Origin: a virus
Taxonomy: Duplodnaviria > Heunggongvirae > Uroviricota > Caudoviricetes
Strand: one strand, 5' to 3'
DNA: 4,771 bases
Virus record (IMG/VR): IMGVR_UViG_2778261502_000006
Made by a program: the position numbers and the translations under genes. Positions 1 to 4,771 of this stretch are shown piece by piece (within the stretch, counting starts at the first letter, position 1; each line of letters opens with the position of its first letter). A model generated the notes under the pieces. The model saw nothing but the letters and a program-made list of their open reading frames with translations, searched no databases and was not told where the DNA came from.

Positions 1-315
1 TTATACACTTTGCTGTGGGATTTTCACGATTGAGGTACCATCAAATCGCCAGGTTAAATCAGCGTCAAAACCAGCAGGTAAAGCTTCAACTTCAGTCACT
101 GACATATCAACCGGGTACAGCATTGATACATCCTTTGCGCACGAACAAATAATACCGTCATCCCCATATACAATTTTCCAGGTATCTTCTCTGAATAACT
201 TTTGTGATTCGTACCAGTCATTGCCTTCATCATCACGAAGGTAAATGACTCCTGAAATGTATGTTTCTGGTGTGTAACGAGTCAGATTTTTTAACGTCAG
301 CATTTTGTTATCCAT
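1..315 (-). CDS. Tail-fibre assembly protein (Tfa; Mu U / P2 G family), N-terminal domain only, about 104 aa. Start ambiguous: ATG 313-315, TTG 316-318 or ATG 301-303.
   Basis: Minus-strand ORF ending TAA at 1-3. The segment DEGNDWYESQKLFREDTWKIVYGDDGIICSCAKDVSMLYPVDMSVTEVEALP matches the N-terminal signature I recall for Mu U / P2 G (EDGKNWYEE..PDT.K.VYD...I.....DVS..NP.....VEV). Its start overlaps the stop of an upstream tail-fibre-like frame (ATGGATAA), the usual stf-tfa coupling. The conserved C-terminal Tfa domain is absent. No clear SD. Confidence 0.6.
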   Translation of the reverse strand: MDNKMLTLKNLTRYTPETYISGVIYLRDDEGNDWYESQKLFREDTWKIVYGDDGIICSCAKDVSMLYPVDMSVTEVEALPAGFDADLTWRFDGTSIVKIPQQSV

Positions 316-544
316 CAATTGTTACCCAATTGCCATTCAGTCTCACCTGCATCGGCGCCACGCGTATTGCTGAAATTGTGATGTAGGTATCATTACTCAG
401 ATTGGTTAGCCCACACAGGAATGAACCACCAGGGGCGTCATAAGATTTTGACTCTCCACCACTACCACCTGGTGTTGCAATGGATGTGATAGCACCGCGC
501 CGGAACCCGCTAGGGTTACAGGTGGTTGTGGAACTGGTCGATAG
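308..544 (-). pseudogene. 3' remnant of a side tail-fibre (stf-like) gene: 78 sense codons with no start codon, ending TAA 308-310.
   Basis: Minus-strand frame is open from 544 to 311, bounded upstream by TGA (545-547). Translation is Gly/Ser/Thr-rich (...NPSGFRRGAITSIATPGGSGGESKSYDAPGGSF...NGNWVTIDG*) and ends 5 nt inside the tfa start, as tail-fibre genes do. The upstream body of the gene is missing. The tail-fibre call rests on position and composition only. Confidence 0.35.
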
Positions 545-632
545 TCATCCCTAAATCGGAAGCCATACCTAAGCGACCATGCTTGTGTGCCTTACACATC
601 AGGCGGATTGCTGTATTTATGCTGTCTACCAT
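516..632 (-). CDS. Small HTH-like protein, possibly a truncated cII-like regulator (38 aa from ATG 630-632; the longer 62-aa ORF from ATG 702-704 would overlap the cro 3' end).
   Basis: ATG at 630-632 is preceded by GAGGGA with an 8-nt spacer. It lies 31 bp downstream of the cro stop on the same strand, the lambda cII position. The product MVDSINTAIRLMCKAHKHGRLGMASDLGMTIDQFHNHL has a helix-turn-helix-like segment but is too short for a full cII, and its 3' end overlaps the tail-fibre remnant frame. Confidence 0.35.
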   Translation of the reverse strand: MVDSINTAIRLMCKAHKHGRLGMASDLGMTIDQFHNHL

Positions 633-663: not shown

Positions 664-921
664 TTAAAGTTGACTATTGTTGTTAGCGGAAGGTATGCCG
701 TCATTTTTGTTCGGATAAATATCAGGTCGTAATTGATGGGGAGTTACTACCCATCCGCCCCATTGGCAGAGTTGAATAACTCTTTCAGAAGGTACTCGGT
801 TCTTTGCAATCCAGTTCGCAACAGATTGAACTGATTGGAATTCAAACCGCCTTGATACCTCTGAAATCGACCCGATCGCCTTCACAGCTTTAGCTGTTAC
901 ATTCTTGTGTTGAGATGACAT
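664..921 (-). CDS. cro: Cro-like DNA-binding repressor (Cro/YdaS-type HTH), 85 aa.
   Basis: ATG 919-921 is preceded by AGGAGA with a 5-nt spacer (reverse complement of 926-931); stop TAA 664-666. The segment FQSVQSVANWIAKNRVPSERVIQLCQWGGWVVTPHQLRPDIYP resembles the Cro/YdaS helix-turn-helix pattern (...S.W....RVP.ER...I...TGG.VT..ELRPD). It is divergent from the CI-like gene. The track ORF 664..978 adds an N-terminal extension with no RBS. Confidence 0.75.
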   Translation of the reverse strand: MSSQHKNVTAKAVKAIGSISEVSRRFEFQSVQSVANWIAKNRVPSERVIQLCQWGGWVVTPHQLRPDIYPNKNDGIPSANNNSQL

Positions 922-1026
922 GTGTTCTCCTATGACTAAGCCTGCATCAATACTACTTATGGTAGCAATTATTAGCAACTTAAAATAGAAATGACAACTA
1001 TGCCTTGTGCGCTTAATCTTCTACTT
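922..1026. promoter_or_regulatory. Divergent cro / cI promoter-operator region.
   Basis: Intergenic between divergent repressor genes. CTAC-N5-GTAG dyad CTACTTATGGTAG at 953-965 and related CTACTTATGGTGG at 1021-1033. A -10-like TAAAAT at 981-986 sits just upstream of ATG 991 on the plus strand. A -35-like TTGTCA lies on the minus strand (reverse complement of 992-997). Promoter assignments are by eye. Confidence 0.5.
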
Positions 1027-1710
1027 ATGGTGGAAAATGCTAAATACAAAGACTTTGCCGAAAGGCTAAACAGGTCTCTCCAAGAGCAATCTATTGGAGT
1101 TAAAGAATTGTCAGAGTTCAGTGGTGTCTCGTATGAGATGGCGCGGCGCTACACTCTTGGTACTGCAAAGCCGAGAGATGAGAAGATGATTCGAATTGCA
1201 GAAAGACTTGCCGTCTCACCGGCTTATCTTGATTATGGTGTGCCTGTTAATGGTGGCGACGCGCCAGCCAAAGGCACGGTCAGAATAGAGCAATTGGATG
1301 TTCATGCTTCAGCCGGTTCCGGATATATAAACCAACCATTCCCTACAATAGTGAGCTCAATAGAGATTCCAGAAGAGAGGATCTTCGAGTTGTTTGGTCG
1401 TAGAAGCCTTGATGGCATCGTCATGATAAATGTTGATGGCGATAGCATGATGCCCACGCTTTGCCCAAAGGACCTGCTTTTCATAGACAGCAAGGTTGAA
1501 CAATTCAGCGGCGACGGCGTTTATGTGTTCAATTTTGAAGACAGTACGTTCGTTAAACGTTTGCAGAAGGTAAAAGGGCGTCGACTGGCAGTTCTTTCAG
1601 ACAATGAACATTACCCGCCCTTCTTCATAGAGGAGCATGAAATGAATGAACTATACATATTCGGCAAGCTAATCAGATGCTTACCTCTAAAAATGATAGA
1701 GTTTGGCTAA
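991..1710 (+). CDS. cI: CI-like prophage repressor: N-terminal HTH plus C-terminal S24 (LexA-like) autopeptidase domain; 239 aa, or 227 aa if it starts at ATG 1027.
   Basis: Full-length ORF with stop TAA 1708-1710. HTH-like region (SIGVKELSEFSGVSYEMARRYTLG). S24 signature with nucleophile Ser in GDSM (VDGDSMMPT) and general-base Lys in FVKRL. Candidate Ala-Gly cleavage site in HASAGSG. No SD before ATG 991, so possibly leaderless like lambda cI. Confidence 0.9.
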   Translation: MTTMPCALNLLLMVENAKYKDFAERLNRSLQEQSIGVKELSEFSGVSYEMARRYTLGTAKPRDEKMIRIAERLAVSPAYLDYGVPVNGGDAPAKGTVRIEQLDVHASAGSGYINQPFPTIVSSIEIPEERIFELFGRRSLDGIVMINVDGDSMMPTLCPKDLLFIDSKVEQFSGDGVYVFNFEDSTFVKRLQKVKGRRLAVLSDNEHYPPFFIEEHEMNELYIFGKLIRCLPLKMIEFG

Positions 1711-1726
1711 TAATTAATTCATCAAG

Positions 1727-1750
1727 AAACCGGCGAAAGCCGGTTTTTTT
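1727..1750 (+). terminator. Rho-independent terminator downstream of cI.
   Basis: AAACCGGC-GAAA-GCCGGTTT stem with GNRA-type tetraloop followed by a run of 7 T. On the minus strand the same hairpin is followed by TTTCTT, so it may act in both directions. Confidence 0.75.
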
Positions 1751-1802: not shown

Positions 1803-1845
1803 CTACTTTTTGTTGTTGCAATTATCTACTTAAAGTAGCTATAGT
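1803..1845 (+). promoter_or_regulatory. Candidate sigma70 promoter with an embedded operator-like dyad.
   Basis: -35-like TTGCAA (1816-1821), 18-bp spacer, -10-like TATAGT (1840-1845). The spacer contains the perfect dyad CTACTT-A-AAGTAG (1826-1838), the same CTAC-N5-GTAG pattern as in the cI/cro intergenic region. A partial site CTACTTTTTGTTG lies at 1803-1815. Confidence 0.3.
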
Positions 1846-1941
1846 CATTGCATCGAAAGCGAACAGGCAGGACGCCCACGAAGTAGCCGCCGGTGGCGTA
1901 TGAATAACCGGATGATTCGCACAATGTCTGATGGAGGGATT

Positions 1942-2166
1942 ATGGATAGTAAAGAACCAAAGATTTCAGCCGGCGGTATGTCGAACGATGAACTGCTTGC
2001 CTGGATGAAAAATAAAACTAAAGCGGTTGAGGAACTCAAATCCGCTTTAGCTCATAAGGAATTTCTGGAAGAGCAGCTTCAGATTAATGCCGCGGAGATT
2101 GAAAGACTTACTCCACAAGCATGTATGAATATTCTTTTGAGTGATCAGGATTCCATTCCCCATTGA
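1942..2166 (+). CDS. Hypothetical small protein, 74 aa, predicted helical / coiled-coil (track ORF begins at 1900).
   Basis: ATG 1942 is preceded by GGAGGG (1933-1938). Product MDSKEPKISAGGMSNDELLAWMKNKTKAVEELKSALAHKEFLEEQLQINAAEIERL... is charged and helical. Its last 59 nt overlap the 3' end of the convergent 175-aa gene, so one of the two may be non-coding there. Confidence 0.3.
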   Translation: MDSKEPKISAGGMSNDELLAWMKNKTKAVEELKSALAHKEFLEEQLQINAAEIERLTPQACMNILLSDQDSIPH

Positions 2167-2703: not shown

Positions 2704-2780
<77 letters not shown>

Positions 2781-2832: not shown

Positions 2833-2878
2833 GGCGGTACCAGTACCAACCTTTGAAGTCCCTGGTACCGCCCTTTTT
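2833..2878 (+). terminator. Rho-independent terminator downstream of the tRNA.
   Basis: Perfect 11-bp inverted repeat GGCGGTACCAG (2833-2843) / CTGGTACCGCC (2862-2872) with an 18-nt loop, followed by CTTTTT (2873-2878). The long loop is atypical. Confidence 0.55.
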
Positions 2879-2963
2879 ACTCAACTGAAAGCGCGTTCTG
2901 TCCCTTGTCATTAAGTGCCAGTTCGTTAAATCCAAAACCAGCGGAACGCGCTTTCAATTGAGT
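2879..2963. repeat. Long inverted repeat: 20-bp arms with one mismatch, 45-bp spacer.
   Basis: Arm 2879-2898 (ACTCAACTGAAAGCGCGTTC) pairs with 2944-2963 (GAACGCGCTTTCAATTGAGT); the single mismatch is C2885 against T2957. It lies immediately after the terminator T-run and is not followed by a T-run itself. Confidence 0.6.
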
Positions 2964-3124
2964 GGAGAAACTAACCGGCGATTGCAGTCGCCCGTTTCAC
3001 TAAGTGCCTCTTCATGGGGCATTTACTGAAACGAAACCCAAACTTTTATTCGCCTTTTGGCGAGGGATTCGTGCAACCAAAATTCAGCGCCGTGCAGGGC
3101 GCATATAACACGGAGAAACTAACC

Positions 3125-3289
3125 ATGACGACCACACAGAACGTCACTGAGTTACAACCACGTATGACCAGAGAGCAACTGATCGATGCAGCTCGTAAAG
3201 CGGCCCCTCTTCTTCCGGTTGCTTACCGCGGGATCATGACAGAACTGGCTACGCCGACTGAAAGCCGATGTAGCATGGTGGAAATCTGA
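3125..3289 (+). CDS. Hypothetical small protein, 54 aa (track ORF 3014..3289 has an unsupported N-terminal extension).
   Basis: ATG 3125 is preceded by GGAG (3112-3115) with a 9-nt spacer. Product MTTTQNVTELQPRMTREQLIDAARKAAPLLPVAYRGIMTELATPTESRCSMVEI. Its 3' end overlaps a second open frame (from 3240). Confidence 0.4.
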   Translation: MTTTQNVTELQPRMTREQLIDAARKAAPLLPVAYRGIMTELATPTESRCSMVEI

Positions 3290-3533: not shown

Positions 3534-3761
3534 ATGAGCGGACAAATCCAACGTTTTCTTACTCCTGATGACCTCTATCAATTAACTGGTTATCGTCGAC
3601 CTTCCCTACAGTGTAAGGCTCTGAGGGATAGTGGAGTTTTTTTTATCCCACGTAAGGACGGCAGACCTGGAACTACATGGGATCATGTATCAAACCCGGT
3701 TGGCCTTAAGTTGATAGTGAGCAATCCAGAGGAAGAAGAACCAAACTTTAAGGATATGTAA
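3534..3761 (+). CDS. xis: Excisionase (lambda Xis-like), 75 aa.
   Basis: ATG 3534 is preceded by GGAGA (3522-3526) with a 7-nt spacer. Stop TAA 3759-3761 overlaps the int ATG (TAATG), as in lambda xis-int. Similarity to lambda Xis is by remembered pattern (RRPRSL...PP.KDGR against RRPSLQ...IPRKDGRP). Confidence 0.7.
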   Translation: MSGQIQRFLTPDDLYQLTGYRRPSLQCKALRDSGVFFIPRKDGRPGTTWDHVSNPVGLKLIVSNPEEEEPNFKDM

Positions 3762-4771
3762 TGTCTAGAGCTCGCAAAAACCCTGATGATAACTGGATGC
3801 CTCCCCGCGTTCGCCGGGGAAAATCTGCTTATGAGTTTCGTACCACAGATGGTCGTACCATCAGGTTGTGCAATCCTGAGCTAACAAAATCGCAGGTATG
3901 GGCAGCTTACGAAAACTTCATAAACGATTTAAAGGTTGGTACGAACTTCAACGCACTTTGTGAAGAGTTCTTTAATTCCGGTGATTTCCACGAGTTAGCA
4001 ACTGAAACACGTAAAGACTACAGAAAATACGGTTCAAAGGTAAATGTTGTCTTCGGGAAAATGAAGCCGGATAACATCAAGCCAGAGCACATCAGAAAAT
4101 ACATGGATAAACGAGGTGTTAAGAGCAGAGTTCAGGCAAACCGCGAGAAAGCATTTATGTCCAGGGTGTTTCGGTGGGCATACGAACGAGGAAAGGTGAA
4201 GATGAATCCTTGCCAGGGCGTTAAGCAATTTAAAGAGCAGGCTCGAACCCGTTATATTAGCGATAGAGAATATGATGCACTTTATAGCGTAGCTTCTGTT
4301 CCAGTAAAAGTTGCAATGGAATTGGCATATCTATGTTGCGCCCGCCAGGGAGACATTCTTGACCTCAAAAAGAGTCAAATATTGAGCGAAGGAATTTTAA
4401 TTCAGCAGAGTAAAACCGCAGTTAGCCAGATCAAGGCCTGGACAAAACGTCTGGAGGATGCCGTTAATCTTGCTGACAGCATTCCTCTTAATAGCGGGAT
4501 GGTAAGTATTTTTGTCATCCACCAGCCATCAGGTCTGCGATACACACGCGATGCTTTTAATGCGCAATGGATGAAGACTAAAAAAATTGCTGCTGAAAAA
4601 TATCCAGACCTCGATTTCCAGTTCACTTTCCATGATCTAAAAGCCAAAGGAATTTCTGATCTTGAAGGTACGCTTAGTGAGAAGCAGGAAATTTCAGGTC
4701 ATAAAAACGCCTCGCAAACAGCGAGATATAACCGAAGAATTTCAGTTGTTCCGGTCGTCGGGGGGCAGTAA
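3761..4771 (+). CDS. int: Tyrosine recombinase / lambda-family phage integrase, 336 aa.
   Basis: Full ORF with stop TAA 4769-4771; AAGGA SD 6 nt upstream. Arm-binding-like basic N-terminus. Catalytic-domain blocks align with lambda Int: LAMELAYLCCARQGDIL (box I Arg), IQQSKTAV (Lys), FTFHDLKAKG (box II His), GHKNASQTARYNRR (His and nucleophile Tyr). Confidence 0.95.
   Translation: MSRARKNPDDNWMPPRVRRGKSAYEFRTTDGRTIRLCNPELTKSQVWAAYENFINDLKVGTNFNALCEEFFNSGDFHELATETRKDYRKYGSKVNVVFGKMKPDNIKPEHIRKYMDKRGVKSRVQANREKAFMSRVFRWAYERGKVKMNPCQGVKQFKEQARTRYISDREYDALYSVASVPVKVAMELAYLCCARQGDILDLKKSQILSEGILIQQSKTAVSQIKAWTKRLEDAVNLADSIPLNSGMVSIFVIHQPSGLRYTRDAFNAQWMKTKKIAAEKYPDLDFQFTFHDLKAKGISDLEGTLSEKQEISGHKNASQTARYNRRISVVPVVGGQ

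Follow-up and report, generated by a model that had tools for sequence, protein, structure and literature searches.

A probable CI-controlled early-left promoter-operator, followed by a conserved leader RNA, in an e14-like lambdoid prophage remnant

Introduction

In bacteriophage lambda, operators OL1–OL3 overlap the early-left promoter PL, which lies downstream of cI-rexAB and initiates transcription at the A of CATCAGCAG. The put RNAs of phages HK022 and HK639 are cis-acting antiterminator RNAs that bind RNA polymerase; those of the HK022 family have two tandem stem-loops with a conserved core and overcome terminators by way of the beta′ zinc-binding domain of the polymerase. Self-cleaving repressors of the S24 family typically carry AG, GDSM and KR motifs. 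In the Escherichia coli K-12 prophage e14 (ymfL, ymfT/croE, ymfK/cohE, ymfJ, ymfI, xisE, intE), ymfJ and intE are among the genes that the SOS response switches on late, an induction that the authors credit to the CI-like repressor (PMC11002266).

We analyzed a 4,771-nucleotide stretch of viral DNA (IMG/VR record IMGVR_UViG_2778261502_000006), called the window throughout. It is what remains of an e14-like lambdoid prophage, whose CI-controlled early-left promoter-operator (PL/OL) is very likely found at positions 1803–1845. As in lambda, the promoter is found downstream of cI and points away from it, with several operators related to those of OR, one of them within the core promoter; the operon ends in xis-int and the repressor is an S24 protein of the SOS-cleavable kind. 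Adjacent operators are about two helical turns apart in both, 23 bp in the window and 24 bp in lambda, and a recognisably lambda-like OL/PL fronts the same leader RNA in some other loci (L034/L125). Lambda differs by having 17-bp operators, as opposed to a 13-bp CTACTT-N-AAGTAG dyad, and the window differs from lambda in having two clear OL sites only, in the direct rather than mirrored arrangement of OL and OR, and in the absence of an N gene, of a boxA/boxB nutL in the leader and of rex genes. No boxA occurs between 1846 and 1942, no N homologue was detected among the window’s proteins (Pfam, PHROG), and the first downstream product, a 74-aa protein, belongs to phrog_1744 and has no Pfam match.

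The resemblance to e14 extends to gene order and strands, the convergent overlapping gene pair after the promoter, the YdaS-type Cro, the YmfL/CP76 gene, the S24 repressor, a promoter with a dyad in its spacer after the repressor terminator, and the same leader RNA, which scores 75.8 bits in e14 with our covariance model R1. The e14 CI is only distantly related to that of the window (29% identity over 72 residues), the two convergent ORFs of the window (74 and 149 aa) have no detectable similarity to YmfJ/YmfI, and e14 has a TGTACC-type operator and another integration site. Judged from its sequence, the promoter-operator is most probably an ordinary PL/OL, and the leader RNA behind it is the more unusual feature.

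A doubly deleted prophage

The left end of the window and the interval preceding the excisionase gene contain the following:

1–516, minus strand: tail-fibre C-terminus and tail-fibre-assembly fragment
516–632, minus strand: truncated YmfL/CP76 gene, a fragment that matches exactly the N-terminus of the complete gene of relatives (PF06892 in the complete gene)
Between tRNA-Arg(UCU) and the excisionase gene: two small ORFs

Two draft assemblies, L131 and L134, contain the window at 100% identity, and in them it is flanked on one side by a gtr O-antigen-modification cluster with dinI and on the other by pgsA-uvrC-uvrY-sdiA, with the integrase gene adjoining pgsA-uvrC. To the left of the window, L131 (2755–5885) and L134 carry a gtrA/gtrB/gtr-type-specific glucosyltransferase cluster, together with dinI at the far end of the remnant. 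A full prophage of 99.9% identity, found in L129/L130, served as reference, and the window corresponds to it minus two stretches. The first deletion removed everything from ymfL to the tail genes, fusing ymfL to the tail-fibre/tfa remnant at a junction at 517; the second removed ~2.8 kb of early-left genes, with a junction at 3250–3259. With these two stretches lost, the window is a doubly deleted, cryptic remnant of an e14-like lambdoid prophage in which the immunity region and int/xis have been retained; being a deletion remnant, its circuit may be partly decayed. Many E. coli genomes, Nissle 1917 among them, carry the block 517–1920 at 99.6% identity, and the immunity region of intact relatives is 99.6–99.9% identical to that of the window. 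The junction at 3250–3259 also creates a chimeric 91-aa ORF (3014–3289).

Repressor, Cro and the putative right operators

The immunity region is organized around the following elements:

991–1710, plus strand: cI-like repressor with HTH_3 and Peptidase_S24 domains (Pfam PF00717, 3.5e-17; PF01381; PHROG ‘transcriptional repressor / CI-like repressor’)
1729–1749, plus strand: cI intrinsic terminator hairpin, followed by U7 (fold: −16 kcal/mol, z = −5.1)
664–921, minus strand: cro-like gene with a YdaS-type HTH (PF15943, phrog_35, RefSeq annotation of an identical gene)
997–992 to 973–968, minus strand: candidate PR, TTGTCA-18-AATAAT, 10/12 matches, the best promoter in the window (promoter scan)
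953–965: putative OR operator, CTACTTATGGTAG, located at the PR start or immediately past it
976–988: putative OR operator, CAACTTAAAATAG, in the PR spacer
1021–1033: third site of the OR region, CTACTTATGGTGG, with three mismatches, overlapping the alternative cI start at 1027

The S24 repressor and the YdaS-type Cro are divergently encoded and followed by the YmfL/CP76 gene, the composition of an e14-type immunity module. Some annotations start cI at 1027 instead of 991. An AG cleavage site, GDSM and KR motifs can be read by eye in the CI translation. The minus-strand promoter overlapped by the operators at 953 and 976 is the PR expected for cro.

A PRM-like site (ATGACA at 991–996, a 17-bp spacer and TAATCT) would place a start at the ATG at 1027; together with the operator at 1021–1033, it hints, by analogy with lambda, at a leaderless cI mRNA and autoregulation. 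The cro stop codon is overlapped by a 25-bp palindrome at 654–678, AATAATCAACTT-A-AAGTTGACTATT, which lies a short way upstream of ymfL (start at 632) and has at its core CAACTTAAAGTTG, an operator-like dyad with two mismatches relative to that of PL. The palindrome could be an extra CI/Cro site, used for instance in looping, or could serve some other regulator. Work on the ‘phage repressor pr’ of E. coli Nissle (PMC5987069) was considered as a source of operator data and set aside, as the primers used there indicate a different gene.

The probable early-left promoter and its operators

The interval between the cI terminator and the first downstream gene contains:

1803–1815, abutting the upstream side of the −35 element: putative weaker OL2-like operator, CTACTTTTTGTTG
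1816–1821, plus strand: −35 element of the candidate PL, TTGCAA (promoter scan)
1826–1838, inside the promoter spacer: putative OL1-like operator, CTACTTAAAGTAG, a perfect 6-1-6 dyad (CTACTT-A-AAGTAG)
1840–1845, plus strand: −10 element of the candidate PL, TATAGT (promoter scan)
1852, plus strand: predicted transcription start (A), placed by register with the lambda-like PL of L125/L034
1857–1920, plus strand: conserved structured leader RNA of 64 nt at the predicted 5′ end of the PL transcript, scored at 93 bits by R1
1859–1863/1916–1920: leader helix P1, GCGAA/UUCGC

The original prediction had placed a perfect dyad within a candidate promoter downstream of the cI terminator, with a partial copy upstream and the same operator-like dyad elsewhere, and all of these observations held when checked on the sequence. 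The dyad lies exactly at 1826–1838, where it occupies 13 of the 18 spacer bases, and its symmetry extends to 1823–1841 if one mismatch is allowed. The surrounding TTGCAA/TATAGT pair matches the promoter consensus at 9 of 12 positions (promoter scan), with a spacer whose 18 bp is suboptimal. In the partial copy at 1803–1815, located 23 bp upstream of the 1826 site, the left half is perfect and the right half matches at three of six positions, giving three mismatches relative to the perfect dyad. The motif occurs three more times in the cro–cI interval. Both the 23-bp spacing and the spacer GCAATTAT are common to the pairs 953/976 and 1803/1826, and the OL and OR pairs are direct repeats, not mirror images. 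A possible third OL site at 1783–1795 (CTACTAAAAATTT) was not counted, having four mismatches and an off-register spacing.

The cI gene, its terminator and the promoter (1816–1845) are all on the plus strand, and the promoter points away from cI; the two operators, at 1803–1815 and 1826–1838, resemble the OR sites at 953, 976 and 1021, and one of them overlaps the core promoter. The position after the cI terminator, on the cI strand, the outward direction, and operators that copy the cro–cI sites are the defining marks of a canonical PL/OL, in which the perfect dyad is very probably an operator of the CI-like repressor. That this promoter drives an early-left operon is read from synteny, in Nissle, L129/L130 and e14; in the window itself, xis and int remain downstream of it on the same strand.

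Comparison across immunity types adds support for a PL/OL. A sigma-70-like promoter precedes the leader in 79 distinct upstream contexts, with a −10 element that most often ends 13–16 nt before P1; in the window this distance is 13 nt, the modal value among the other immunity types. The same-strand ORF just upstream of the promoter-leader unit is a CI homologue in 78 of 121 contexts, and most of the others look like inserted membrane or exclusion-type genes, comparable to lambda rexAB. The heteroimmune F1055 and Eeyore have TTGCG..CGCAA-type dyads in the PL region and in their own cI-cro region, and K-12 e14 has TGTACC-type dyads in both. Since the lambda-like PL of L125/L034 aligns with lambda PL, the start is expected ~8 nt before the first helix, that is, at A1852, where the window reads GCATCGAAAG in the same register as the lambda start sequence. 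If the assignment is correct, the catalogue of lambdoid elements gains one operator specificity (CTACTT-N-AAGTAG) and one PL/OL.

The early-left operon

Downstream of the leader, the window contains:

1942–2166, plus strand: 74-aa ORF with a GGAGG ribosome-binding site, called as a gene in L129–L134
2108–2557, minus strand: ECs1072-family gene of 149 aa (NF033230, 127.7 bits against a cutoff of 70; phrog_5286)
2704–2780, plus strand: tRNA-Arg(UCU), within the early-left transcription unit (ARAGORN; Rfam tRNA, 66.5 bits)
2833–2879, plus strand: terminator-like 11-bp GC-rich hairpin followed by CUUUUUA (−23 kcal/mol, z = −4.8)
3534–3761, plus strand: excisionase (DUF4224; PF13986; phrog_1266 ‘excisionase’)
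3761–4771, plus strand: tyrosine integrase at the distal end of the operon (PF00589, PF22022)

The 74-aa ORF starts 97 nt past the PL −10 element, and a homologue of its product, recognized at the protein level, is the second-commonest first gene after the leader. The 149-aa gene, which corresponds to the ORF earlier taken to be 175 aa long, starts at 2557 behind an AAGGA ribosome-binding site and is annotated at 149–151 aa in relatives; it runs towards the 74-aa ORF and shares 59 bp with the 3′ end of the latter. No PADLOC defence-system match was obtained for either protein. The hairpin at 2833–2879 stands between PL and xis/int and is a likely barrier to PL transcripts.

In intact relatives, the early-left operon is multi-kilobase and ends in xis-int. 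In Nissle 1917, an identical promoter heads a ClpX-zinc-finger gene, rdgC, several small genes, a 3′-5′ exonuclease and an excisionase, all on the same strand; in L129/L130, the order after the promoter is the 74-aa gene, tRNA-Arg, a ParB-like gene, others, xis and int. The first gene after the promoter-leader unit is highly exchangeable, belonging to 41 unrelated clusters among 83 contexts.

Two inverted repeats were seen in this region. One, at 2886–2956 on the plus strand, is a 16-bp perfect repeat, GAAAGCGCGUUCUGUC...CGCUUUC, with a gap of c. 39 nt and GAAAGCGCGUUCCGCU-type arms (−25 kcal/mol, z = −5.2). The other, GGAGTGCGCTT/AAGCGCACTCC, flanks 2640–2700, just upstream of the 149-aa gene and the tRNA.

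Alternative readings of the promoter

A single perfect dyad or a 9/12 promoter would be unremarkable alone, and the credibility of the site comes from recurrence and arrangement. Perfect 6-1-6 dyads are expected about once per ~4 kb, that is about one in 4.8 kb, and three are present (660, 1826 and 3459); promoter-like sites are not enriched in the window either, with 6 found against 7.9 expected in shuffled sequence (promoter scan). These figures are what a chance palindrome inside a chance promoter match, with no regulatory role, would have in its favour. Against this stand the matches to the dyad with up to three mismatches, which amount to 12 strand-hits in the window as opposed to 1.2 expected, a count reached by none of 200 shuffles. 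They lie at 660, 953, 976, 1021, 1803 and 1826, plus one at 2446 that is likely due to chance, so that the motif recurs far above chance and is restricted to the two regulatory regions; all four CTACTT hexamers of the window fall inside the sites at 953, 1021, 1803 and 1826. Combined with the spacing and spacer common to OR, the 99.6% conservation of the block and the same architecture across many immunity types, these counts make coincidence extremely unlikely.

The two remaining alternatives accept a regulatory function and assign it to another transcript. A minus-strand promoter-like site, ATGACT(1848–1843)-16-GATAAT(1826–1821), overlaps the same operators and, because the OL and OR pairs are direct repeats, is placed relative to them as PR is at OR; it also scores 9/12 (scan), although it is the weaker site. 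Instead of or besides PL, the operators might thus serve an RNA antisense to the 3′ end of cI. In heteroimmune relatives, however, the conserved promoter reads along the plus strand and keeps a fixed distance to a plus-strand leader RNA; the leader, the boxA that frequently follows it and the downstream genes are all plus-strand, and a transcript in the opposite direction would head straight for the cI terminator hairpin. We regard this arrangement as highly unlikely. A dedicated repressor-controlled promoter for an accessory pair of 74-aa and 175-aa genes, such as a lysogenic-conversion or moron locus, was the form in which the site was originally proposed. The 74-aa ORF is indeed the nearest downstream gene in the remnant, and both ORFs belong to phage families of unknown function. 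In intact relatives, however, the same promoter heads a complete early-left operon, and the gene that comes next is freely exchanged, as the 41 clusters indicate. The longer gene is convergent and on the opposite strand, so PL cannot express it, and a transcript from PL would run antisense to it. Keeping PL silent in the lysogen would, if it matters at all to the 149-aa gene, permit its expression and not control it directly. A dedicated accessory promoter is very unlikely. What stands of the original proposal is a promoter that is probably under repressor control; the special accessory switch gives way to an ordinary PL/OL heading a whole operon, and the special link drawn between immunity and the gene pair finds no support. 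The annotation changes accordingly: the ‘accessory pair’ is not a unit, and only its 74-aa member, the first PL gene, would be under PL.

Proposed regulation

From sequence features, statistics, gene identities and synteny, we infer repressor binding, promoter activity, a start site and SOS induction, which for the PL/OL reading would combine as follows. LexA-like CI dimers would bind the 13-bp CTACTT-N-AAGTAG dyads, strongly at 1826–1838 and more weakly at 1803–1815, at a distance of 23 bp that would let them bind cooperatively. CI occupancy would exclude RNA polymerase and keep PL off in the lysogen. Because CI has the Ala-Gly, GDSM and KR motifs, SOS should clear both PL and PR: RecA-stimulated self-cleavage of CI would free PL and, at the three related sites in the cro–cI interval, PR as well. 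Genes downstream of the dyad-bearing promoter should, on sequence grounds, be off in the lysogen and on after SOS. The late SOS induction of ymfJ and intE in e14, whose layout is the same, speaks indirectly for this. The transcript would run from about A1852 through the leader RNA, the 74-aa gene and the tRNA-Arg region, on to xis and int, and Cro would probably use the same operators later. The cryptic remnant is thereby predicted still to answer SOS with expression of xis and int, which could excise it along with the neighbouring gtr O-antigen-modification genes.

The leader RNA

Besides P1, the leader comprises two internal helices:

1866–1868/1874–1876: putative leader helix P2, GGC/GCC
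1890–1894/1907–1911: leader helix P3, CCGGU/ACCGG

Conservation and structure: The leader block is 85–97% conserved in more than 50 phages, including ST64B, SfV, SfII, SfIV, ZF40, mEp460, phiNP and Eeyore, and the sequences upstream (repressor, operators) and downstream (first genes) differ between phages. The first copies were gathered from viral contigs, and a second set consists of R1 hits from a one-genome-per-species scan. P1 and P3 can be seen by eye and were tested on 50 non-identical copies, in which compensatory double changes, with up to four pair types each, occur at every one of the five P3 pairs and at four of the five core pairs of P1; P2 never covaries. Covariation scores 0.508, as opposed to 0.134 in shuffled columns, and sliding the 3′ partners by 1–3 columns gives 0.112 at most. 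In the species scan, R1 yielded 45 clear hits; apart from one genome of Pseudomonas lundensis and one assembly labelled Chryseobacterium, they belong to Enterobacterales genera. Of the cells in this set, 97% are paired, and covariation is seen at 10 of 13 pairs. The unpaired core CCCACGAAGUAGCCG is invariant by construction, because it seeded both scans; unseeded BLAST hits also retain it largely intact. The structure emerged only from comparative data, the fold of the single leader sequence being not unusually stable (z = +0.19).

Distribution: The leader was found in 1840 of 5426 complete E. coli genomes, about a third (BLAST), and is unannotated in all of them. It occurs in more than 100 loci, including K-12 e14, where it lies between ymfK and ymfJ (L256, 3490–3566), and is unannotated in phage and RefSeq records. 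An Rfam search found only the tRNA in the whole window (E<=1) and nothing for the leader alone (E<=10), a silence that is weak evidence of novelty because Rfam is also without the put RNAs. The leader stands behind immediate-early promoters, also within the terminal repeat of T5-like Providencia phages, and no fixed protein-coding partner adjoins it. An rrn-type boxA, GCTCTTTAA(C/A)AA, follows the leader by 9–65 nt in 27 of 135 contexts, with several unrelated linkers; the window is without it, and the conserved RNA is not a boxB like that of lambda nut. A small hairpin, GCGCCC...GGACGC, often precedes boxA (L004 ~5411–5450; L014, L112, L204, L233, L251, L067 and others).

Comparison with put: The put RNAs of HK022/HK639 and the window leader are of similar length (~70 nt and ~64 nt, respectively) and sit at the very beginning of the PL transcript (PMC9378689; HK639 annotation); both come without a detected N homologue and without a fixed coding partner. 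The window leader has two hairpins inside a closing helix, as opposed to the two open tandem stem-loops of put. In addition, put copies are present in both early operons, and R1 found one leader copy per locus, with none in 4–5 kb of the PR operon of L005, L129 and L130. R1 also found nothing at HK022 putL/putR or at the HK639 putL-like RNA, even with filters off, and membership of the leader in the put family was rejected on this search.

Possible function: The 5′ position, the absence of a partner gene, the boxA, and a downstream hairpin in an operon with no detected N homologue point to a possible role in transcription elongation or antitermination, for which we judge the sequence-based case to be evenly balanced at best. 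More tentatively, and by analogy, the leader could be an undescribed class of cis-acting elongation-modifying RNA, a functional analogue of HK022 put; its rivals are a 5′-end stabiliser and a binding site for another host factor. If it does modify elongation, it would act alone, or with Nus factors where boxA follows, and the early-left transcripts of N-less lambdoid prophages (including K-12 e14) and of some T5-like phages would pass terminators such as that at 2833–2879; in that case, an RNA-based antitermination switch would have the repressor-controlled promoter as its entry point. The leader is a more useful lead than the promoter, as it sits where N-independent antitermination is expected, and it makes an old question testable in K-12, namely how lambdoid phages without N read through early terminators.

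Other resemblances: A riboswitch is less likely, since the RNA is not followed by a conserved expression platform, and divergence begins straight after P1. A hammerhead-like resemblance (GAUGA) was rejected by inspection, the junction strands being unfit for a hammerhead core, as was an ops/RfaH-like one (CGGTGGCGT compared with CGGTAGCGT), whose ops-like bases are unconserved and form part of the covarying P3 stem. The first 20 nt of the lambda PL transcript (AUCAGCAGGACGCAC; L257, lambda 35560–35582, minus strand) resemble the leader start and P2 (AUC...AGGCAGGACGCCCAC; window 1866–1880), which may be a vestige of a shared ancestry of PL leaders.
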